From a virus: a stretch of DNA of 40,897 bases. The translations under genes and the position numbers were made by a program. The stretch is from the IMG/VR virus record IMGVR_UViG_3300030519_000008. One strand, 5' to 3'. Positions 2,776 to 40,223 of this stretch are shown here, piece after piece. The notes beneath the pieces are model-generated. The model did not search any database and was not told the origin of the DNA. It saw only the letters and a program-made list of their open reading frames with translations. Each line of letters starts with the position of its first letter. Within the stretch, counting starts at the first letter, position 1.

Positions 2776-2949
2776 ATGACCCTGAGCAACGACCTTTACC
2801 AAGCCCGGAAAGCGGGCGATGCCATCACCCGAGAGATGGAAGAAGCGGCGGAAGCACTGGAAGCCCGGATCACGGAACTGGAGGCGGAACTCGCCCGATA
2901 CACCACTCCGGCAATCCTGCCGGTCGATAACTCGCCCATCGCGGGCTGA
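2776..2949 (+). CDS. Small coiled-coil hypothetical protein, 57 aa (below the ORF-track cutoff)
   Basis: Hand translation: MTLSNDLYQARKAGDAITREMEEAAEALEARITELEAELARYTTPAILPVDNSPIAG. GGAG lies about 7 nt upstream. High GC3. Confidence 0.55.
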   Translation: MTLSNDLYQARKAGDAITREMEEAAEALEARITELEAELARYTTPAILPVDNSPIAG

Positions 2950-2968
2950 TGTCCAGGAGCCACCCTCA

Positions 2969-3112
2969 ATGATCAAGCGCGCCTTCCAGGCATGGATGCG
3001 AACGAAACTCGGCTGGTTCCTGCCAAAAACCCTGACCGTCTTCGAACGTCAGCTCAGCGAAGCCTATCGCGCTGGGTTCAAGGCCGGCCGGGCGCACAAG
3101 GTGAAACACTGA
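2969..3112 (+). CDS. Small basic hypothetical protein, 47 aa
   Basis: AGGAG (2955-2959) lies 9 nt before ATG 2969. MIKRAFQAWMRTKLGWFLPKTLTVFERQLSEAYRAGFKAGRAHKVKH. Its stop overlaps the SNF2 start (TGATG). Confidence 0.5.
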   Translation: MIKRAFQAWMRTKLGWFLPKTLTVFERQLSEAYRAGFKAGRAHKVKH

Positions 3113-4554
3113 TGCAAATTGAGACGCCCTATCCTTACCAGCTGACCGGAGCCGACTACCTGGCCGCCCATCCGCAGGCCTTCCTTGCCGACGACATGGG
3201 CCTTGGGAAGTCGTGTCAGGCGGTGGTTGCGTCCGACCTGATTGGCGCCGACCGGATCCTGGTGCTATGCCCGGGCAGCGTGCGGGTCAACTGGGAAAGG
3301 GAGTTCCAGAAGTTCAGCCCGATGGACCGGCCCTGCCGGGTGCTGATGACCGGAGGGGATGAAGTGCCAACCACAGGCGTGGTCATCTGCAGCTATGATC
3401 TGCTGGTGGCGCCCACGTCCGGCAAAGCGGAGAAGCGGGCGAAGAAGGCGCCGGAAGACCAAGCCTTAAAAGCCAAGGCCAAGGCCGCGCGCCAGCTCAA
3501 AGCGAAGCGTCAGGCCTTCCTCCACGCCATCCAGGCTACCCGGTGGGACGTCCTGGTGCTCGATGAAGCCCAATACCTGAAGGACAGGGGCGCCGGCCGC
3601 ACCACCGCGGTCTTTGGCCGCAACATCAACGACCTGGGCATCGCTGGCAACGTCGATCGCATCTGGCGCCTATCCGGCACCCCAGCCCCCAACAACGTCA
3701 GCGAACTCTGGATCCACCTGCGCAGCGCCGGCATCATCACGATGGGCTACTATGACTTCGTGGCGCGCTACTGCGTCTGCATCGAAGGGAAGTTCGACGT
3801 CAAGATCGTCGGGGTCAAGAACGCCGATGAACTGAAGGGGCTGCTGGCTCAGTTCATGCTGCGCCGGATGAAGGCCGACGTCCAAGCCGACCTGCCGCCC
3901 ATCCGCTTCGAGGAAGTGGTTGTCGAGGCGAGCCCGGTGCTGCTGGACGCATCCTGGGGCCCGGGCGCCGCGGACGAAATCCGGGTGGGCGAGCAGACGC
4001 TGTCCCAAGCCTTGGCCGCCATTGCGCCTGACGCCGCCCTGGGGCTGCTGAAGACCGAGGGGGTGGCGATGGCCACGCTCAGGCGCTACACCGGCCTGGC
4101 GAAGCTCCCAGGCATCCTGGCGATCATCAAGGAAGAGCTGGAGTCGGGCGCCCTGGATAAGATCGTCCTGTTCGGGATCCACCAGGCGGTGATCGAGCAA
4201 ACCCAGAAGGCCCTGGCCAATTTCGGCGCCGTCTCCGTCTACGGTAAGACGCCCGGGCCCCAGCGCCAGGCCAACATCGACCGGTTCAGCAAGGACCCAT
4301 CTTGCCGGGTCATCGTCGGAAATATCACGGCCGCCGGCGTGGGCGTCAACGGCATGCAGGACAGCTGCAGCGAGGTGGGCCTGCTGGAGTCCAGCTGGGT
4401 TCCCAGCGACAACGCCCAGGCCGTCGCCCGCGTGCATCGCAACGGCCAGTCAAAGTCAGTCAGAGTGCGGGTATTCAGCCTGCACAACTCCAGCGATGAG
4501 CCGGTGAACGCCGCACTCATCCGCAAGATCCGCGAGCTTGCGAAAATATTTTAA
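3112..4554 (+). CDS. SNF2/Rad54-family helicase (ATPase)
   Basis: ORF 2992..4554 trimmed to ATG 3112. DDMGLGKSCQ (motif I), LVLDEAQYLKD (motif II), LSGTPAPNN (motif III), GNITAAGVGVNG and QAVARVHRNGQ (motifs V and VI). Confidence 0.9.
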   Translation: MQIETPYPYQLTGADYLAAHPQAFLADDMGLGKSCQAVVASDLIGADRILVLCPGSVRVNWEREFQKFSPMDRPCRVLMTGGDEVPTTGVVICSYDLLVAPTSGKAEKRAKKAPEDQALKAKAKAARQLKAKRQAFLHAIQATRWDVLVLDEAQYLKDRGAGRTTAVFGRNINDLGIAGNVDRIWRLSGTPAPNNVSELWIHLRSAGIITMGYYDFVARYCVCIEGKFDVKIVGVKNADELKGLLAQFMLRRMKADVQADLPPIRFEEVVVEASPVLLDASWGPGAADEIRVGEQTLSQALAAIAPDAALGLLKTEGVAMATLRRYTGLAKLPGILAIIKEELESGALDKIVLFGIHQAVIEQTQKALANFGAVSVYGKTPGPQRQANIDRFSKDPSCRVIVGNITAAGVGVNGMQDSCSEVGLLESSWVPSDNAQAVARVHRNGQSKSVRVRVFSLHNSSDEPVNAALIRKIRELAKIF

Positions 4555-12125: not shown

Positions 12126-12589
12126 ATGACATGAAGGTAGCCGCGCTGTGCGCCGCCTGCGGCTGGACGACGGTGGGTGACGCCTACCCCATCGTGTGTG
12201 CCCATTGCCAGCAAGTGGTCCACGGGCCTGGGACGTATAAGTTGGTCGACCCCAAATCGGCCGAAGCGGATCCTCTCGGCATCGCTCCCCACGAACCCGG
12301 GGCCAAGCTGGACGCGGGTAAGATCCGCCCGTGGCTGTGCGTCTCGGGATTCTCCCGCGCGCTGGCGAAGGTGGCCGACGTCACGACCAAGGGCGCCGCC
12401 AAGTATTCCCCAAACGGATGGATGGAAGTGCCTGATGGGCAGGCCCGGTACATGGATGCCTTCGGCCGCCACATGCTGGCCCTGGGCCAAGGCGAGACGA
12501 CTGACCCCGACACGGGCTGCCTGCACAAGGCGCAGATGATCTGGAACCTGCTGGCCAGTCTAGAACTGGATCTGAGGCAGGAGCCGTGA
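12113..12589 (+). CDS. Zinc-ribbon plus DUF5664-like (dATP/dGTP diphosphohydrolase N-terminal-type) domain protein
   Basis: AGGAGAGG (12101-12108) before ATG 12113. N-terminal CAACGW...CAHC. C-terminal KLDAGKIRPW...GAAKYSPNGW...DAFGRHMLALGQGETTDPDTGCLHKAQMIWNLLASLEL fits my recollection of the DUF5664 consensus. Confidence 0.65.
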   Translation: MARMNDMKVAALCAACGWTTVGDAYPIVCAHCQQVVHGPGTYKLVDPKSAEADPLGIAPHEPGAKLDAGKIRPWLCVSGFSRALAKVADVTTKGAAKYSPNGWMEVPDGQARYMDAFGRHMLALGQGETTDPDTGCLHKAQMIWNLLASLELDLRQEP

Positions 12590-12819
12590 CCGTCTCGCTC
12601 AAGACGAAGAACCACTACGCCAGGCGCAAGTTCATCAAGGACCACCAGCCGGACCCGATGACCCTGCGCGATTGCCCGCAGCACAAGCTTGCCCACCCCA
12701 CCGAGGCCCAGGCGAAGCAGCGCGCCGCCCTTGCGTTCAAGGCTGACGGCAAGAAGCTCTACCCCTACAAGTGCCCGCACTGCCGGAAGTGGCACCTCAC
12801 TTCGATGGAGCAGGGATAA
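12586..12819 (+). CDS. Small zinc-finger-like protein, 77 aa
   Basis: GTGA overlap with the upstream stop. DCPQH...YPYKCPHCRKWHLTS gives a C-x2-H ... C-x2-C arrangement. Last gene of the rightward arm. Confidence 0.6.
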   Translation: MTVSLKTKNHYARRKFIKDHQPDPMTLRDCPQHKLAHPTEAQAKQRAALAFKADGKKLYPYKCPHCRKWHLTSMEQG

Positions 12820-12821
12820 AT

Positions 12822-12848
12822 AAAAGCCCCGGATGATCCGGGGCTTTT
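12822..12848. terminator. Bidirectional rho-independent terminator between the convergent early (+) and late (-) arms
   Basis: AAAAGCCCCGGAT-G-ATCCGGGGCTTTT: a perfect 13-bp stem with an A-run and a T-run. Lies between stop 12819 (+) and stop 12866 (-). Confidence 0.85.
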
Positions 12849-12865
12849 CGTTTGCGCGGTCCTCG

Positions 12866-13474
12866 CTACCAGCTCATCCCGACCACTACGAAGGCGCTGA
12901 ACTTTGGCAAAGGGCTGTAGGTGCCCACAACGCCAACCTGGAAAGGTCCGAGCTTGTGCAGATAGCCTGCGAGGTAGGCCTTGTTGACCAGGTCGTAGCC
13001 GCCGATGGCCGTTGACTTCGGCTCGCGCGGCGCGGATGACACTGGTATGTCCACGCCTCCCACGATGGCCCCGTCAGGGCTGCTTGCCACCACACGCTGG
13101 GTATCATCCGGCATCCTCAAGAGGGTCAGATCCACTGTCGTTGTAGACGGGAGGGCCGGGGTCAGCGCGGCGCCCGGCTGGCCGGACCCATTCGTTGGGG
13201 CGGTCGCCGCGGCGGGTGCAGATGATGCCCGAACCTGGATCCTTTCGATCCGCTCGACCTTGGCGCCCTTCGGGATCTGCTGGGCGGGAACCGCCTTGGC
13301 GTCCGGCGCGCGCTCCAGGATCAAGCTGCCGTCCGCCTGGCGCGCTGCCGCTGCCGGTGTCTCCACCGTCGCCACGGGTTTCGGGCGAAAGATCTTCCAG
13401 CCCAGCCCGATGCCTGCCACGAAGATCAGCCCTGCGGCCAGAGCCCATGCTCCTATTTTTGTGGTCCATGTCAC
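12866..13474 (-). CDS. N-terminally membrane-anchored protein with a Pro/Ala linker and a beta-rich, aromatic-terminated C-terminus (possible atypical spanin or envelope-disruption factor)
   Basis: GTG start overlaps the holin stop (GTGA). TM segment IGAWALAAGLIFVAGIGLGWKIF. Linker PKPVATVETPAAAARQ...APAAATAP. C-terminal ...GGYDLVNKAYLAGYLHKLGPFQVGVVGTYSPLPKFSAFVVVGMSW. Last gene of the late arm. Confidence 0.6.
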   Translation of the reverse strand: MTWTTKIGAWALAAGLIFVAGIGLGWKIFRPKPVATVETPAAAARQADGSLILERAPDAKAVPAQQIPKGAKVERIERIQVRASSAPAAATAPTNGSGQPGAALTPALPSTTTVDLTLLRMPDDTQRVVASSPDGAIVGGVDIPVSSAPREPKSTAIGGYDLVNKAYLAGYLHKLGPFQVGVVGTYSPLPKFSAFVVVGMSW

Positions 13475-13707
13475 TGGCCACCTCTCATGGAAAGGGCGCC
13501 GAGACCGCAGACGCCACCCATGGTCGCCAGCGCCGTGTTGTTGATGTGCCCGGTCCCCCGGAACTCAAGCCAGATCATCGCCAGGCCGACGAAGACGTAG
13601 GCGCCGAAGGCCAGGAGTCTGACCTCGGTGGTGTGGTCGGAAGGATTGCCTAGGCTGACTGCCCAGGATCCGGCCGCGGTGATTCGCTGAAGAAGCCAAG
13701 CCCACAT
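13471..13707 (-). CDS. Holin-like small membrane protein, 78 aa with 2-3 hydrophobic segments
   Basis: GGAG 6 nt upstream of ATG 13707. Hydrophobic segments VRLLAFGAYVFVGLAMIWLEF and ALATMGGVCGLGALSM. Adjacent to the putative lysin. Confidence 0.6.
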   Translation of the reverse strand: MWAWLLQRITAAGSWAVSLGNPSDHTTEVRLLAFGAYVFVGLAMIWLEFRGTGHINNTALATMGGVCGLGALSMRGGQ

Positions 13708-13767
13708 GGGGTCTCCGGAAGTGGGATATCGTAAACGTCTTCGTCGTACGGGTCGTCTAGATATGGG

Positions 13768-14202
13768 TCAGGCAAGGAGGAAATCGTCGGTGATCACGAT
13801 GCTGACGTCCTCCCCGGCGGCCAGCGCCTTGGCAACCTGGGCCTGCAGCATCGGCAGCGCGAGACTGCCCCCGTGGATGTGGTCGGGCCCGTCCACCACC
13901 TGGCCCACCAGGATGCAACCGTGGGTGTTGGTGTCGTCGTTGCCGCTGTGGATGAGGATGCCGTCGAAGTGTGGCACGTCCAGCAGCCGCATCATCGGGC
14001 GCCCCAGGCGCGGGCTCATGTTGATGATGACGGGGTAGGTGCCGGCCGGAATCGCGGTGGCGTCCTGGACTTTGCCCGAGCCGTCGTCCGCGATGCAGCG
14101 AACCACGTCCTCCAGGGTGACGCATTCGAAGTCTTCGTTGACGAACAGCCGGCCGAGCGTGGCCGTTTCGTTGCTGGACAGGCGGTGCAGGGAAAGGATC
14201 AC
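13768..14202 (-). CDS. Putative cell-wall hydrolase (DUF5675-like; His ... Gly-Cys motif reminiscent of the YkuD fold)
   Basis: GTG 14202 with GAGG 6 nt upstream. TLGRLFVNEDFECVTLED...IPAGTYPVIINMSPRLGRPM..LLDVPHFDGILIHSGNDDTNTHGCILVGQ matches my memory of DUF5675 phage proteins. Sits within the lysis cluster. Confidence 0.5.
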   Translation of the reverse strand: MILSLHRLSSNETATLGRLFVNEDFECVTLEDVVRCIADDGSGKVQDATAIPAGTYPVIINMSPRLGRPMMRLLDVPHFDGILIHSGNDDTNTHGCILVGQVVDGPDHIHGGSLALPMLQAQVAKALAAGEDVSIVITDDFLLA

Positions 14203-14210
14203 AGGCTACC

Positions 14211-14522
14211 TCAATGTCTTCCGGGGACGGGTTCTTCGGTCTGCGCGGTGCGAGGCTTGGCGACCAAGTAAAACTTCTGCCTGTCCTCGCGCAGATTGGT
14301 TTCGTAGCTGGTCTTGAGCGCGTCCTGCTCAAACTGCAGCCGGTCGATGCGCTGATTGGCCGAGCGGATCTCCACTCCATTGGCCGCCATGGTTTCGCAT
14401 AGGCGCTGGACGGTGGTGTTGAGCATTTCCAACTTGCCCCCGAACCAGACGATGATGAGCCCGACCGCCCCGATTAGGATGCGGTCGAGCCAGGAGCCGA
14501 GAGTGGCGCGGCGCTCGGTCAT
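14211..14522 (-). CDS. N-terminal TM plus coiled-coil protein (i-spanin-like topology)
   Basis: ORF 14211..14540 trimmed to ATG 14522, which overlaps the tailspike stop (ATGA). TM WLDRILIGAVGLIIVWFGG, followed by heptad-like QRLCETMAANGVEIRSANQRIDRLQFEQDALKTSYE. Confidence 0.6.
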   Translation of the reverse strand: MTERRATLGSWLDRILIGAVGLIIVWFGGKLEMLNTTVQRLCETMAANGVEIRSANQRIDRLQFEQDALKTSYETNLREDRQKFYLVAKPRTAQTEEPVPGRH

Positions 14523-17053
14523 CAGTAGCTCGGATACCAATGGCTGTCAGCGGTATTCCACGTAAGAATCAGGGATTTACCCGGGATAGCCGTAGAAGCC
14601 ATACCGATGTTACCGGAAACCCCTGTTGTCCAAGTGGACCCAGCTTGGGGTAAAAGAGTGATTGTGGGCCAGGATCCAAGGGTAATATTCTGGATAGTCC
14701 CGGATGAATTGACGCCGATGACTTGGGCGCTTGGAGTGATAGTGGCTGCGGCAGCAATTACCCCCACAGCAGGCATCCCCTGGTTATTGACAATCAGGCC
14801 AGGGTTGGTGAACACGGGGGCAGTACTTAGGAATGTGTTTCCCTCGACCACACATCGGTTCGCTACCGTGATTTGGTCGGTAAAGACCAGCCCCTGGCTG
14901 TTAGTGAAAACGTTATTGCTTACAACAGCGTTGGCGCATTTCGTGAAGTTCGTCAGACGGAAGCACTGGTTGCCAATAAAAGGCGCGGTATAAAATCCGC
15001 TTCCAGTTGTTGCACCGTTAATTTCAAAGTTGATAGAGTCTGGGTTCCCAGACCCAGGCGATGCGCCCGAAATAGTGCAACCTGTGAAGGGGACGTTCAC
15101 ATTGGACCCGGCGTTCGTGCTGGTGTCCATGATATTCAATCTTGAGGTATTCCCCACACTGGTGGAAGGGATAGTGAATTGGCAGGTTGATACTGCTCCA
15201 TTCACCGTCACATTTGCCCCCAGCTTGAACACCGTTACTTCGGATGTATTGGAAGGGGCTGCACATATGAATTGCACGTTGGAAATCTGGATATTAGGGC
15301 CGCTACCTCCAGTGTAGACCGCAAATATAAAGTTGCTGTTCCCGGTGCCGCCGATGGAGTTACCCGTCATGCTCACAGTGCAATCGGTCATGCGAACCAA
15401 TGGTTGCACCACTCCTGTTGTATTGATGGCAAAAAGGTTTGAAACGATGCTGGATTGGTTTGTCCAGACTACGCTGTTTCTCATATTTAAGGAACATCCG
15501 GAGCCAATAGTAAAATCGGCTCCTCCGCTTAGTAAAACAAAGTCTTTAACTGCTTCCATATATGTATCTAAAATCTGCATTGATCCTGAACTTAGTACGA
15601 ACGCAGTTACACCAGTCATTGCGGTTCCGGTTCCGGCTCCCGCGCCCGTGGCTACAAAAACAGTGCCCGCAGTATTAGATGGCGCCCCGATGGCGACAAA
15701 GTTGGTGGTTCCAGGGGAGAGGATGGTGTAGACGTTTCCAGATATAAACGATCCTGCCGGGATCGTGTTGCAATACATGGCTTCTTCGCAGTAGCAGGAG
15801 ACACAAGTGCAGAAGTTTGGACCCCAGTTGGCGCCAATGTAGGCTGTGCCAGTCCCGGCTCCTGGGCCAGTAGCCGTGAAAGTGAGGCCGGCTGTATTGG
15901 ATGCGGCACCGATGGCAATCCAGTTGGTTGTCCCAACAACGCTAATAACATATTGGGTTCCTGCAACGAAGCTACCCGCAGAAACAAGCGGGGTATTTGA
16001 TAAATTCCACCCGATCCCTACCGGGCGATAGTTTTTTACGTGAAAAAAATGGGTTAGGATGGATTCACCAACAACGTTGGCGATCTGAGTGTAGAAACAG
16101 GTAACGTCCTCCCCGTTGAAATAGGGCATCCGGTAGATGTTCCAAAGGTAAGTATTGGTGTTATAGGTTGACGAATTCCCGATGACCTGACAGCCTCGGA
16201 AGGTCGTGTGTGCGCAAACAAAAATTGACCCCCCGATATAGCCGGGATTGTAACGGAATGCCGCAACAGTGGTATTATTCGCCAGACTGATTATGGTTCC
16301 GTCGAACTCGAAACTGCAACCAATGGGGCAAAATATCGTCCCATCGATTCTCAAAGTTCCTTTTGGAACTCTGATCTTTACGGGAGTTGGCATGACAGCG
16401 GTTGGAAGGTTCACGTTGACGCCGCTGAAATAGCCGTTGGTTGTATTGGTTGCATCATTGACGGCAACCTGAATCGCTGTAGTGCTATCCGTAACCCCAG
16501 TCAGGTCGATTCCAGGCCAATCAGTCAAGGAGACAACATCAGCATTTTTATTGTGCTGCAAACGAGAAGCTGCGTTGGGATATGGAGCCTTCACCGCCAG
16601 CAGTGCGTCACCCTGTCCTGCGGCTGGGGAGGCGAGAGGCGCGAGGATCTGCGCGATGGTCAGCCCAGGCGAAGCCAGGTTCTGGATCTGCCCCTGCAGC
16701 TGCTGCGCCAGCAACACGGCATGGTCAGCCGCGGCTTCATGGGAAGCAGCTGGGAACGGGTCGCCTTCAACCCAGTGGGTGAGTTGCGTGAAGGGCTCGT
16801 TCAGCAGGATCGAGAGAACCTGCACCGCGTTCTTGGGCGCCACGAAAAGCGACACGGTGACGAACAGGCCGCCCACCGAGGTGAGCGTGTAGTCCGAGTT
16901 CAGCACCAGCGTCCGCACCACAGGCGAAGCCGGAATGGTGTTGTCGGTGAGGATCACCAGCGGCGCCGAGATGCAGTTCGAAGGCGCGTTGAAGCTGGTC
17001 GTGACGCCATTGCCCGTGTAGTTAACCACCGGGTTGTTGCTCTGAACGGTCAT
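14522..17053 (-). CDS. Tail fibre / tailspike with a conserved N-terminal anchor and a beta-helix (pectate-lyase-like) receptor-binding or depolymerase body
   Basis: SD CAGGAG before ATG 17053. The N-terminal ~150 aa are typical of podovirus fibre adaptors. VSLTDWPGIDLTGVTDSTTAIQVAVNDA resembles the start of pectate-lyase-type tailspikes. Asn/Thr/Gly/Val-rich beta-helix-like repeats follow. Confidence 0.85.
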   Translation of the reverse strand: MTVQSNNPVVNYTGNGVTTSFNAPSNCISAPLVILTDNTIPASPVVRTLVLNSDYTLTSVGGLFVTVSLFVAPKNAVQVLSILLNEPFTQLTHWVEGDPFPAASHEAAADHAVLLAQQLQGQIQNLASPGLTIAQILAPLASPAAGQGDALLAVKAPYPNAASRLQHNKNADVVSLTDWPGIDLTGVTDSTTAIQVAVNDATNTTNGYFSGVNVNLPTAVMPTPVKIRVPKGTLRIDGTIFCPIGCSFEFDGTIISLANNTTVAAFRYNPGYIGGSIFVCAHTTFRGCQVIGNSSTYNTNTYLWNIYRMPYFNGEDVTCFYTQIANVVGESILTHFFHVKNYRPVGIGWNLSNTPLVSAGSFVAGTQYVISVVGTTNWIAIGAASNTAGLTFTATGPGAGTGTAYIGANWGPNFCTCVSCYCEEAMYCNTIPAGSFISGNVYTILSPGTTNFVAIGAPSNTAGTVFVATGAGAGTGTAMTGVTAFVLSSGSMQILDTYMEAVKDFVLLSGGADFTIGSGCSLNMRNSVVWTNQSSIVSNLFAINTTGVVQPLVRMTDCTVSMTGNSIGGTGNSNFIFAVYTGGSGPNIQISNVQFICAAPSNTSEVTVFKLGANVTVNGAVSTCQFTIPSTSVGNTSRLNIMDTSTNAGSNVNVPFTGCTISGASPGSGNPDSINFEINGATTGSGFYTAPFIGNQCFRLTNFTKCANAVVSNNVFTNSQGLVFTDQITVANRCVVEGNTFLSTAPVFTNPGLIVNNQGMPAVGVIAAAATITPSAQVIGVNSSGTIQNITLGSWPTITLLPQAGSTWTTGVSGNIGMASTAIPGKSLILTWNTADSHWYPSY
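15620..15979 (-). repeat. Two ~46-aa intragenic repeats flanking a Cys-rich linker inside the tailspike
   Basis: aa 359-404 AGSFVAGTQYVISVVGTTNWIAIGAASNTAGLTFTATGPGAGTGTA. aa 433-478 AGSFISGNVYTILSPGTTNFVAIGAPSNTAGTVFVATGAGAGTGTA. Linker NFCTCVSCYCEEAMYC. Confidence 0.85.
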
Positions 17054-21714: not shown

Positions 21715-24357
21715 CTACTTCAGCAGTTGAACGCTGGGCCGGGCATGGACCCCGGGGGCCAGGTTGTTGATGTCCACCATGACCGGCCTGCCATCGTTGC
21801 CCTGCAGCGCCCGGCCACCCATGGTGATGAGGTATTTGCCTTCGCCCCAATTAGCATATTGGAATGCGTCCGAGGTGTCCAGGGCCGTGCCTTTGAGCCC
21901 CGAACGGTCCAGCGCAGCAGAGACCGCCGGCTGAAATTTTCCGTCGAAGGCGCCCTTGTTCATGCCCCAGGGCAGAAATACCTTGCTGCCGTTCTGCCAG
22001 GACATACCACCAGTCACGGCGTTGACCGCGTTCTCGACGTCCTTCGGCGCCAGGGCCTTGGGGTCGATGCCCCGCTTGTAGATGTCGGCCGCGAGGTAGG
22101 ACTTAACGGCCTGGTAGGTGTCATCCGCCACCTGGGCGCTGCGCTGCGCGTCGGGGCTGGAGAACGCGTTCGGGCCCACGGCCTGACTGAACATCGTGTT
22201 GAAGGTATTGTCGTCCAGGTTCATGGCCCGGCCGGTCTTCGTGCCGTCGCCGTCGGGCGCCCCGCCCATCAGGATGTGGTTGCCCTCCAGCACGTACTGG
22301 CCGACGATGTCGCCGGTCTGCGCGCCGGCTGCCGTCGGCACGGTGCCACGGTTGGCCGAGATGCCCGCGGCGATGGGCAGCATGGCATTCTTCGGGGCGA
22401 CCTGATGCCAAACGTCAGCGGACCAGCCCGGGTGATTGGTAAGCGCTGTGCTGAGGCCCTTGACGTAGGACATCTGGTCCTGGGGGTTCATCCGGTTGAG
22501 CAGATCGCCCAGGCCCGAGGCCTCGTCCTTGGTCAGGAGATGCGCTGCCGGAGCGCCGTAGTCGTTGCGGCCTGAGGTGGCCAGCGGTAGCCGGTTCAGG
22601 ATGCCGACCTGGAAGTTCTGGGCGGTGGAGAAGTCGATGGGCTTGGCCCCGCCGATCCCATTGTCGATGGCGAACTGGGGGAAGTCGACGTTGCGCGCTT
22701 GGGTGACGGCTGCGGCTGCCTCGATGAAAGCCCGGGCCGCGGGGTTCTGATCGGCGAAGCCCGGGCCGCCGGCCACGTCCTGCCGATTGATGGTGGACTG
22801 GATCTGGGCATCGGTCATGGTGGCGAGCTGAGCGATTGCGCCCCCGACATCCTTCACCTTGGCCAGGTCGTCGAACTTGCGCTGGCCGCCGTCCACGCCG
22901 TAGAGGCGCTGCAGGTTGCCCAGGCTGACGTCGGGGGGAGGCGCACCGGGGGCGCTGGCGTAACCCTTGCCAGCCATGAAGCTGGCCGACATGTCGCGCA
23001 GCACCACGTCCATCTTGCCCCGGTCGCTGGCGAGCCCGGCGCCCATGGCCGCTTCTGCCTGGCGCACCGCAGCCACCTTCTCTGGCCAGGTGAGCTTGCC
23101 CCAGCCAGAGATGCCCGGGGCGGCCTGCCCGATCTGCTGATCGGTGAGCGGCTGAACCTGGGGCACGTCCGGCGGTTCCACCGTCATCGCCGAGGCCGCG
23201 GGAACCGTAGCGGCAGCCGGGACCGTCGACATGATGGAGGATACGTAGTTCTGGGTCTCAGCCGGCGCGTGCTGCAGCCAGGAGTCCCCATACTTGGCGA
23301 CCGTGGCGGCCAGCGCCGAGGGACCCATGTTGTAGGCGGCCAGCGCCTTGGACACGTCGCCGTTGTTGGTGGCCAGCTGCTTCTGGAAATAGGCGTTGCC
23401 GAGCTGCGCGTTGTATGTGGAGTCGTTCTTGAACTTGTCGGGATCCCAGGCCACGCCGGCGAGCCCCGCAGCCTCGGACCCGGTGGTCGGCATGATCTGG
23501 GCCACGCCCACGGCGCCCTTGGGGCTGACCGCGCCCTGGTTGCCTCCGGACTCCTGCTGGATGACCTTGCTGAAGATGTCGGAAGCTGGGGCTGTTGGAG
23601 TAGCCGGAGCAGCCGGGGTATCCGGGACTCCACCAGGGACCGCGCCCTTCCCTGTGGTGAGGCCGCCCTGGGCATGCACGCCCCGCAGGAAGCCGACAGG
23701 ATCCGTAGCTGCCAGCACACCCACCTGGGTGATGGCCATGCTGTGCTCGGAATTGTCCTGCCACTTCATCTTCAGGGTGGGGTCGACGTTGAGGCCACCA
23801 ATGGTGTCCTGCATCCCGGCCTTGATCCGGTCGTAGTTGTCGTTCGAAGGATCGGCCGCTAGGGAATCCTGGTTCGCCTTCGCCGTGTCCTCGACCATCT
23901 TGCTGACGTAGACCCCGGTGAGCCGTGCCTGCTCGCCCATGGCGTGCTGCATGAGCGCGTGGCCGTTCATCGCCATGTGACTGGCGACGATCTTGCGCGC
24001 GGACTTCGTGGGCGCGGCGGCCATGGCATCGTCCGAAGCCTGCTGGATCTGCGAGTGGAAGGTGTCCGAGAGGCCGCTGACCTTCTGGGAAAACTCGGGG
24101 TCGTTGGGGTCCAGGGAGTTGACCTGCTCGCTAAAGCCCTTGCTCAGGCCGGTGTAGGCCTGGGATGCCGCGTTGTAGGCCCAGAGCCGGCCGTTGTTCT
24201 GGTCCACCGCATCAACGGCCTCAGCGCCCTGAGCCAAGCCCCCGGCGATGTGGCCCAACCCCTGGCCGATCCCGGCGCCGAAATCACTGGGCGAAGCCTG
24301 GGCTCCAATCCCGCCCTGGGCCGTGACGTGGTCTTCGTACTGCGGGATCTGCGCCAT
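21715..24357 (-). CDS. Internal virion protein with a lytic transglycosylase (SLT) domain
   Basis: GGAGAG 6 nt upstream of ATG 24357. SLT motifs at aa ~260-360 (23278-23580): VIQQESGGN (catalytic Glu-Ser), GAVGVAQIMP, AAYNMGP. Confidence 0.9.
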   Translation of the reverse strand: MAQIPQYEDHVTAQGGIGAQASPSDFGAGIGQGLGHIAGGLAQGAEAVDAVDQNNGRLWAYNAASQAYTGLSKGFSEQVNSLDPNDPEFSQKVSGLSDTFHSQIQQASDDAMAAAPTKSARKIVASHMAMNGHALMQHAMGEQARLTGVYVSKMVEDTAKANQDSLAADPSNDNYDRIKAGMQDTIGGLNVDPTLKMKWQDNSEHSMAITQVGVLAATDPVGFLRGVHAQGGLTTGKGAVPGGVPDTPAAPATPTAPASDIFSKVIQQESGGNQGAVSPKGAVGVAQIMPTTGSEAAGLAGVAWDPDKFKNDSTYNAQLGNAYFQKQLATNNGDVSKALAAYNMGPSALAATVAKYGDSWLQHAPAETQNYVSSIMSTVPAAATVPAASAMTVEPPDVPQVQPLTDQQIGQAAPGISGWGKLTWPEKVAAVRQAEAAMGAGLASDRGKMDVVLRDMSASFMAGKGYASAPGAPPPDVSLGNLQRLYGVDGGQRKFDDLAKVKDVGGAIAQLATMTDAQIQSTINRQDVAGGPGFADQNPAARAFIEAAAAVTQARNVDFPQFAIDNGIGGAKPIDFSTAQNFQVGILNRLPLATSGRNDYGAPAAHLLTKDEASGLGDLLNRMNPQDQMSYVKGLSTALTNHPGWSADVWHQVAPKNAMLPIAAGISANRGTVPTAAGAQTGDIVGQYVLEGNHILMGGAPDGDGTKTGRAMNLDDNTFNTMFSQAVGPNAFSSPDAQRSAQVADDTYQAVKSYLAADIYKRGIDPKALAPKDVENAVNAVTGGMSWQNGSKVFLPWGMNKGAFDGKFQPAVSAALDRSGLKGTALDTSDAFQYANWGEGKYLITMGGRALQGNDGRPVMVDINNLAPGVHARPSVQLLK

Positions 24358-39946: not shown

Positions 39947-40161
39947 CACCTGAAGCCCGGTCAGAAGCCAGAATCCAGAACAAAAGCCGGAACGCGAAAA
40001 GCCATACGCCGTAAGGGTTGCTCTACCCTCTCTTTATTTCTAAAGAAAAATAAAGAAGTATAGGTATAGCTATTATGGCCCGGTTCGGCCTTGCACCCCC
40101 TCCCGTGGCCGACCCCCGGCCCGGTCCCGGCCGCCAATGCGGATTCTGATTTAGTTTAGGG

Positions 40162-40223
40162 AAAAGCTGGAACAATTCGTGGAACATCTTAGTGCCAAGA
40201 GGGTCTGCCACGTTCCAGCTTTT
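40162..40223 (+). other. 12-bp perfect inverted repeat with a trailing T-run (terminator-like or sRNA 3' end)
   Basis: AAAAGCTGGAAC (40162-40173) pairs with GTTCCAGCTTTT (40212-40223), followed by aattttg. 38-nt loop. Confidence 0.4.

Follow-up and report, generated by a model that had tools for sequence, protein, structure and literature searches.

Outer-membrane disruption and the lysis cassette

Since about 13% of the phages of Gram-negative hosts were found to be spanin-less (PMC6139136), it has been a question how such phages breach the outer membrane. The present analysis concerns four genes, designated A, B, C and D, that close the late arm of the virus record IMGVR_UViG_3300030519_000008 of IMG/VR (a stretch of 40,897 nt, hereafter the window), and in particular gene D, which is best read as a one-piece, lipobox-free spanin substitute predicted to act at the outer membrane. 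The described phage systems closest to D include: (i) the u-spanins of the T1 gp11 class, with a periplasmic domain that is predicted to be mainly beta in T1 gp11 (Kongari et al. 2018, PMC6139136), (ii) the Rz/Rz1 spanins, and (iii) the disruptin gp28 of phage phiKT, a phage-encoded cationic antimicrobial peptide that substitutes for spanins in a spanin-less podophage (bioRxiv 10.1101/515445).

The T1 gp11 u-spanin is the closest functional analogue of D, as each is a single chain encoded by the last gene of its cassette and has a periplasmic domain predicted to be rich in beta structure. Both proteins are predicted to link the inner and outer membranes, and both are found alongside different endolysin types. 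By contrast, the T1 gp11 class has an N-terminal lipobox cysteine and a C-terminal transmembrane (TM) helix, whereas the D protein of the window has no lipobox, no cysteine, a 26-residue hydrophobic anchor at the N-terminus as its only helix and a C-terminus of amphipathic beta strands. The Rz/Rz1 spanins share a genomic slot with D, as seen in the related Ralstonia phage RpY1, and Rz, like D, is anchored N-terminally in the inner membrane; D differs from this pair in having neither a lipoprotein partner nor a coiled coil. No sequence similarity is detected between D and the spanin families of PHROG. To our knowledge, the phiKT disruptin is the only described alternative to spanins; compared with that system, the window has no small open reading frame (ORF) that fits the 8-60 nt gaps of the cassette, and D is a 202-aa anchored beta protein.

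Two further types of envelope protein resemble D in part. In TamB, the N-terminus is anchored in the inner membrane, and the C-terminus engages an outer-membrane protein of the Omp85 type. The anchor plan of D is similar to that of TamB/AsmA, although D is ten times smaller. The YadA and Hia proteins contribute four strands per chain to a 12-stranded barrel; the C-terminal unit of D superimposes on these proteins only locally, and D is without the cleavable signal peptide.

Position and layout of the cassette

The window is the genome of a podophage, in which the early and replication genes occupy the plus strand up to position 12819 and the late genes, on the minus strand, run from about 37000 to 12866. 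The portal protein shares 63% identity with its counterparts in the Ralstonia phages RpY1, DU_RP_II and C22, and RpY1 (MN996301.1) is the closest cultured relative. Genes A to D are tightly packed on the minus strand directly after the gene of an 843-aa tail fibre, at the site where RpY1 has its holin, lysozyme and Rz/Rz1 cassette. The start of A overlaps the tail-fibre stop by 1 nt, the start of D overlaps the stop of C (GTGA), the intergenic gaps within the cassette are 8, 60 and 46 nt, and GAGG/GGAG-type ribosome-binding sites precede B, C and D. We read the four genes as a complete late cassette for lysis, made up of non-classical parts and with D in place of the Rz/Rz1 pair, in a temperate podophage with a betaproteobacterial-type (diderm) host, and place the probability of this reading at roughly 0.55.

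A sequence-only reading of the window had described four consecutive genes that end the late arm of a phage of a diderm-type host, and had assigned to them a TM plus coiled-coil protein (A), a DUF5675-like protein with a His...Gly-Cys motif (B), a holin-like protein of two to three TM segments (C) and an N-anchored protein of 202 aa (D). This description stands throughout. All four ORFs are present on the minus strand (Table 1); A has one hydrophobic segment followed by a heptad-patterned part that is predicted to be periplasmic; B matches PF18925 and its relatives retain the motif residues His85, Gly95 and Cys96; C has one strong and two weak hydrophobic segments, with two-TM counterparts in other phages; and D has an N-terminal hydrophobic segment. 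A host of the diderm type is consistent with the identity of the portal to Ralstonia phages and with the occurrence of D relatives in a Rhodocyclaceae assembly.

The cassette is 92% identical to that of virus record L001. Substitutions between the two at codon positions 1, 2 and 3 number 17/12/35 in A, 7/3/23 in B and 8/7/18 in D, and this excess at the third position fits the coding of A, B and D in the called frames. Gene C, which is almost identical between the window and L001, is uninformative in this comparison.

Family and genomic contexts of gene D

Gene D is the last gene of the lysis cassette, or follows it directly, in 13 contexts besides the window. The endolysins encoded upstream of D belong to five unrelated families (Peptidase_M15_3, Glyco_hydro_19, Phage_lysozyme, DUF5675 and Tlde1_dom; Table 1). 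In contigs with called genes, the start of D overlaps the upstream gene, usually by 1-4 nt, or abuts it. The genomes that carry D are podo-like, sipho-like and lambdoid in layout; in three prophages (L017, L018 and L020), D is followed by an ORF that resembles a small terminase subunit by sequence (not scanned against Pfam), as in the layout of lambda. In RpY1, the tail-fibre gene is followed by a DUF7940 holin, a signal-anchored Phage_lysozyme and a DUF2514 Rz protein with an embedded Rz1, and it is the Rz/Rz1 slot of this series that D occupies in the window. The D protein and the Rz of RpY1 align with a BLASTP E of only 1.

Clustering of the D homologs gives at least 218 clusters at 90% identity and 647 at 50%, with lengths of 185-235 aa in nearly all. 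Relatives are found in a Rhodocyclaceae assembly and, by profile search, in 8 of 401 genomes sampled from the order to which the Rhodocyclaceae belong, while a pattern scan of species genomes for D gave two loci only. D belongs to no Pfam, PHROG or NCBIfam family, and Pfam and PHROG scans of 24 of its relatives returned scattered matches that were dismissed as chance. Neither D nor a typical relative (P0047) has a match by tblastn among 50,697 GenBank phage records, blastn of the cassette against GenBank phages gives none, and no description of the D family was found in the literature searched. A large and uniform family that takes the Rz/Rz1 slot behind five types of endolysin is a directly testable candidate for the outer-membrane step of lysis.

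One of the D contexts has an additional feature. In L010 (2351-3001), the gene directly upstream of D encodes a protein of 216 aa in which a hydrophobic N-terminal segment is combined with a long, helical, Ala-rich region, a make-up that recalls Rz-type i-spanins.

Sequence and predicted structure of gene D

Past residue 28, the structural model of D contains no helix; its strands, all beta, number eight. Residues 3-28 are modelled as a helix with a predicted local distance difference test (pLDDT) score of 88-96, and the four terminal strands (residues 154-161, 166-175, 178-187 and 191-200) lie in a region with block-mean pLDDT of 90-92 (151-200). Beta segments of lower confidence are placed at residues 72-82, 111-120, 126-131 and 137-140. 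In the strand regions, the alternation of hydrophobic and polar residues persists over 222 sequences.

The N-terminal segment of D is predicted to be an uncleaved anchor. The helix is followed by the conserved motif GW.(L/I)(W/F).PKP, of which G25 is nearly invariant. The hydrophobic core spans 20 residues, lacks a nearby A-x-A site and precedes the conserved W.PKP. A cleavable signal peptide was considered and rejected, as the A-P-A motif that is frequent in the family is 13-18 residues past the hydrophobic core and GW.LW.PKP is conserved. Other motifs of the family include RQADGSL.LER, IPKGAKVER and (C)PPVRVDL.L.RMPD..RRV.ASSPDG..VGG.DIPV. Exactly one cysteine is present in 59 of 120 homologs, and a Cys motif of the CPPVRVDL type is present in 66 of the 120. 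The cysteine of CPPVRVDL recalls the intermolecular disulfides of Rz/Rz1, and the absence of cysteine recalls the u-spanins.

The C-terminus is the most regular part of the family. Nearly all of the same 120 homologs (118) terminate in Phe or Trp, positions -1, -3, -5 and -7 are hydrophobic in 95-99% (95-97% at -3, -5 and -7), position -4 is Gly in 104 and position -2 is Arg in 58. By this residue pattern, the C-terminus of D matches the beta-signal carried by beta-barrel proteins of the outer membrane. In neisserial (betaproteobacterial) proteins, the residue before the last is reportedly typically basic. D is unlike an outer-membrane barrel protein in that it has no cleavable Sec signal and has four strands, as opposed to the eight or more of such barrels in one chain. 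Local fold matches of the C-terminal unit are to Hia (2gr7 and 3emo) and to a phage YadA-like anchor, with a root-mean-square deviation (rmsd) of 3.3-3.4 A over 54-56 columns; this modelled resemblance is kept as a lead only. YadA_anchor (PF03895) is not matched by D in Pfam, and a PDB sequence-profile search with D gives no match.

Gene B, a candidate DUF5675 endolysin

B is most likely the endolysin of the cassette and is a candidate for an L,D-transpeptidase-like fold. The protein matches DUF5675 (PF18925) with an E of 9.9e-25 and 87.1 bits (cut-off 26.7) and also matches phrog_1501, with no other family match in Pfam, PHROGs or NCBIfam. B has over 1,600 homologs, and in 30 diverse members H85, G87, N88, G95 and C96 are invariant. 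The AlphaFold2 model of B (pLDDT 95.7, predicted template-modelling score (pTM) 0.89) has a single good fold match in the PDB, Tlde1a of Salmonella (7uo3_A; probability 0.98, template-modelling score 0.50, E 0.038, rmsd 5.6 A). Tlde1a is a murein L,D-carboxypeptidase/transpeptidase of the L,D-transpeptidase fold. PDB sequence-profile matches of B to FlgD were set aside as chance, and that search found nothing else.

B differs from the YkuD enzymes (MEROPS C82) in its shorter His-Cys spacing and in having no YkuD profile match (PF03734, E <= 1). The spacing from His85 to Cys96 is 11, with the sequence THGC. In the YkuD motif, 14-17 residues separate the His from [S/T]HGC. No hydrophobic segment, signal or TM helix is present in B and, thus, the protein would need a holin to reach the wall.

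Comparison of two related metagenomic phages (L007 and L008) points to the function of B. The flanks of their cassettes are 75-81% identical in nucleotide sequence, and the proteins of the first cassette gene (A-like) and of D are 50% and 48% identical, respectively. The identical slot encodes a Peptidase_M15_3 protein in L007 and a DUF5675 protein in L008, an instance of non-orthologous displacement. As related phages carry a Peptidase_M15_3 endolysin in the slot of the DUF5675 protein, B is most likely an endolysin as well.

The DUF5675 proteins have been proposed earlier as an endolysin class, in the annotations of crAss-like phages and in a 2026 preprint, and B is one more member. Homologs of B are encoded in 168 GenBank phage records, at 33-41% identity. 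Those of crAss001 and cr106_1 are annotated as L,D-carboxypeptidase/transpeptidase and adjoin genes of a "lysis regulatory protein/holin", and homologs at 35% identity belong to the annotated lysis modules of crAss001 and phages related to it. On structural grounds, the 2026 preprint places DUF5675 among the lysin domains as a "C82-like" one; the accessible part of that text contains no assay of it. B is a full-length family member, as are the 'C82-like' lysins crAss001 Gp30 and LysPd160 examples of the family; it has the invariant His and Gly-Cys and, like the proteins of the crAss-like phages, is encoded within a lysis module. By contrast, the crAss-like DUF5675 proteins are only about 35% identical to B, and their hosts are Bacteroides, whereas that of B is proteobacterial. 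The cassette of the window adds comparative evidence for DUF5675 as an endolysin class, which bears on genome annotation and lysin discovery.

In a sipho-like phage (L009, 1700-2068), a 122-aa Tlde1_dom/YkuD-like protein (YIHGP...SMGCIVV) is encoded upstream of small membrane genes and D. This protein is apparently a second L,D-transpeptidase-fold family recruited as an endolysin.

Search for classical endolysins and lipoprotein spanins

The sequence-only reading had reported neither a classical endolysin family nor a lipobox-bearing o-spanin, separate or embedded, and had concluded that the outer membrane must be disrupted in another way. The first of these claims holds, with a refinement. 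None of A to D matches the lysozyme (GH24/GH19), amidase (amidase_2/3), SLT, Peptidase_M15/M23 or CHAP/NlpC models of Pfam, PHROGs and NCBIfam and, thus, classical families are absent from the cluster as claimed, yet an enzyme of the DUF5675 family, L,D-transpeptidase-like by its model, is recognisable. Pfam analysis of about 35 ORFs of the window finds a single classical endolysin domain, an SLT domain, so that a canonical endolysin elsewhere in the genome exists in name only. The SLT-bearing protein was rejected as an endolysin on account of its size (880 aa) and its place among the structural genes; it probably belongs to the virion interior and is ejected to open the wall during entry. In RpY1, a gene of similar size at a similar place is annotated as a minor structural protein.

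Lipoboxes were sought in all six frames of the whole window by a strict regular expression and then by a relaxed one. The relaxed expression, with RpY1 as a positive control, finds the embedded Rz1 of that phage, which has an LMGC lipobox that the strict expression misses. Both scans agree with the earlier claim: no lipobox ORF is present in 12866-14522, whether separate, overlapping or embedded, and no credible one is present in the window. An ORF with a weak ASLCC string (12615-12752, minus strand) was rejected, as it runs antisense within the gene of a 77-aa zinc-finger protein, the residue at -1 is Leu or Cys, and the mature product would be only about 20 residues long. Within the gaps of the cassette, no further small ORF in coding context was found, and the D genes of L002, L004 and L006 contain no embedded lipobox ORF. 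The other way of disrupting the outer membrane that had been called for has a candidate within the cassette itself, namely gene D.

Among seven metagenomic D cassettes scanned, a lipobox ORF is found in one (L006). Its product (2854-3168) is a small lipoprotein-like protein (...LFLTLFLAGCGAG...) that is either an o-spanin-like partner or an unrelated lipoprotein. The embedded Rz1 of RpY1 (MQRALTLLLPTLLLMGC..., with a Pro-rich mature part), a canonical o-spanin, is at 39958-40212, in frame +1 of the gene annotated as 'putative Rz protein', and is itself unannotated in GenBank.

Genes A and C

A has a single hydrophobic segment by hydropathy (residues 8-34), with an N-in TM helix predicted at about 12-30. 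Direct reading of the sequence reveals heptad-spaced hydrophobic residues at 31, 34, 38, 41, 45, 52, 55, 59, 62, 69 and 73, in two stretches that are split at Asn48-Gly49, followed by a Pro-rich tail. The predicted topology, an N-terminal TM helix and a putative periplasmic heptad/coiled-coil region, is like that of an i-spanin, with no match to Pfam, PHROGs or NCBIfam. Only 10 close homologs of A are found, and tblastn gives no match in the 50,697 GenBank phage records. Genes for proteins with a TM helix and a helical region open 5 of 7 metagenomic D-containing cassettes (L002, L007, L008, L009 and L010). No sequence similarity between A and these openers is detected; A and its positional analogue in L002 give no alignment and, thus, the analogy is one of architecture only.

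The strong hydrophobic segment of C spans residues 27-49, and the two weak segments are rich in Gly and Ala. C has no match in Pfam, PHROGs or NCBIfam. The slot directly upstream of D encodes small, two-TM, holin-like proteins of about 90 aa in L002, L008 and L009. Searches of the A-like and C-like neighbour proteins against PHROG gave nothing usable. C, possibly with A, is a candidate holin or holin-regulator pair, with the two roles assignable either way.

Table 1. Features of the window and contexts of gene D (locations are window positions or, for the contexts, the records concerned)
Feature	Location	Strand	Description
Gene A	14211..14522	-	103 aa from ATG; type II membrane protein; candidate holin, antiholin or lysis regulator
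Gene B	13768..14202	-	144 aa; soluble, acidic DUF5675 protein; candidate endolysin, L,D-transpeptidase-like (C82-like) fold
Codons of B His85-Cys96	13915..13950	-	IHSGNDDTNTHGC; putative catalytic His/Cys pair
Gene C	13471..13707	-	78 aa; small membrane protein; GGAG ribosome-binding site; candidate holin
Gene D	12866..13474	-	202 aa; predicted N-terminal membrane anchor, all-beta body and C-terminal four-strand unit
D residues 4-29	13388..13465	-	predicted TM signal-anchor helix; hydropathy maximum 2.04
D residues 154-202	12869..13015	-	four predicted amphipathic beta strands of about 10 residues each; ends VVVGMSW
SLT-bearing protein	21715..24357	-	880 aa; SLT domain at residues 261-356 (~23290-23577), E 2.4e-16; among structural genes
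D behind Peptidase_M15_3	L002/L003, L007		
D behind Glyco_hydro_19	L004/L005, L006		
D behind DUF5675	L008, window		
D behind Tlde1_dom	L009		
D behind Phage_lysozyme	L014, L017, L021		prophages
D after holin-endolysin	L018, L020		layout as in L017; endolysin family not scanned
D behind protein of no assigned family	L010, L019		

Proposed mechanism and alternative explanations

In the mechanism proposed for the cassette, C and/or A would permeabilise the inner membrane, and B, as a leaderless cytoplasmic endolysin, would then be released and would degrade murein via Cys96/His85, most likely at an L,D peptide bond of the stem. D would by then have accumulated, held in the inner membrane through the N-terminal helix, with the all-beta body crossing the periplasm and the C-terminal four-strand unit engaging the outer membrane via the beta-signal. 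This engagement could take the form of a small barrel, made by oligomerisation of D, or of docking on a host insertase of the Omp85 family. Removal of the murein by B would free D from the mesh, and D would then disrupt the outer membrane.

D may work like a spanin and yet belong to neither spanin class. This role, which we infer throughout, is well supported by comparative genomics. A bolder proposal, which we advance tentatively and at somewhat less than even odds, is that D founds a third spanin-like class, in which an inner-membrane helix is combined with an outer-membrane beta-signal that acts via BAM (the beta-barrel assembly machinery) or the translocation and assembly module (TAM) of the host, or via a shared barrel. 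Such a class would have no need of the Lol pathway and would be widespread in uncultured phages and in prophages of hosts of the Burkholderiales type. If true, the proposal would explain part of the 'spanin-less' phages. If D uses a beta-signal at the outer membrane, phage lysis would be linked to the BAM machinery, an antibiotic target.

Several points weigh against this interpretation of the cassette. We know of no precedent for a beta-signal protein that is kept anchored in the inner membrane during its insertion into the outer membrane, and a four-strand D monomer cannot form a barrel alone. The overall model of D is of moderate quality only (pLDDT 72.9, pTM 0.34, alignment-based), fold searches with it in the PDB and BFVD give no significant match, and the matches to Hia and the YadA-like anchor are local, with an E of 0.4-1.1. 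The clade of D found in the window is without the periplasmic Cys of most of its relatives (STTTVDL, in alignment A1 at the column of about residue 108 of the window's D). C is without the charged C-terminal tail that is typical of holins, and the cross-links of murein would not be broken by a Tlde1-like L,D-carboxypeptidase activity alone. The last place of a late operon is one that morons such as lambda bor typically occupy as well. What the analysis shows is the order of the genes, their family memberships, predicted folds and conserved motifs, the position-for-position replacements and the lack of lipobox ORFs; the functions of A to D, the topology of D and its action on the outer membrane are inferred.

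D might instead be an accessory envelope protein, a moron that serves superinfection exclusion or the modification of the host surface and takes no part in lysis, with the disruptor of the outer membrane absent or unrecognised. Lambda bor, which follows Rz/Rz1, is an established example at the end of a lysis cassette, the roughly 13% of phages cited above are without an identifiable spanin, and D itself is similar to no known lysis family. We consider this unlikely, as D, wherever genes are called, adjoins or overlaps the lysis gene upstream of it, no promoter-like site is found in 12500-14700, D travels with its five unrelated endolysin families across podo-, sipho-like and lambdoid-layout genomes, and the slot that it takes is exactly that of Rz/Rz1 in RpY1. 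A division of labour between A, as a short i-spanin, and D, as its non-lipoprotein partner in the outer membrane, would account for the i-spanin topology of A and for the analogous proteins that open 5 of 7 metagenomic cassettes. This arrangement is distinctly unlikely: D has its own N-terminal anchor, conserved and seemingly uncleaved, and is found without an A-like gene in L004, L006 and the lambdoid prophage cassettes, the A-like proteins share no detectable sequence similarity with A, and the periplasmic part of A is only about 70 residues long.

The beta-signal could also act in another manner, with D as a mimic whose C-terminal strand jams the lateral gate of BamA (or TamA) and so destabilises the outer membrane, with no bridging or fusion of membranes. 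Darobactin inhibits BAM by beta-signal mimicry, and the C-terminus of D has every feature of a beta-signal. Lectin-like protein antibiotics are likewise described in a preprint as inhibitors of BAM by beta-signal mimicry (bioRxiv 10.64898/2026.09.25.754295). Blocking the assembly of outer-membrane proteins is, however, slow compared to a final lysis step on the scale of seconds, and a simple inhibitor would need neither a conserved inner-membrane anchor nor a long body, which makes mimicry quite improbable. There is, finally, a very slim chance that a canonical o-spanin or endolysin was overlooked because of an unusual lipobox, a start codon other than ATG, GTG, TTG or CTG, or sequencing errors. 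Embedded spanins are often missed, as illustrated by the unannotated Rz1 of RpY1 and its LMGC lipobox that escaped the strict expression, and the spanins of LambdaSo were found only by experiment (bioRxiv 10.1101/2024.01.23.576932). The relaxed scan nonetheless recovers that Rz1 and reveals nothing credible in any frame of the window, the D genes of L002, L004 and L006 are equally free of embedded lipobox ORFs, and Pfam yields only the SLT domain of the virion protein. D as a one-piece spanin substitute remains the preferred reading of the cassette.

Variation within the cassette

The divergence between the window and L001 is uneven along the cassette. C has 1 change in 237 nt, and the spacers in 13471-13767 and 12800-12865 are nearly identical too. 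A has 64 changes in 312 nt, with a protein identity of only 77%, and the two records cannot be aligned over the final 78 nt of the tail-fibre gene, immediately upstream of A. As C and both flanking spacers are virtually identical while the A proteins are only 77% identical, the comparison points to a recombination mosaic with a breakpoint inside the lysis cassette.

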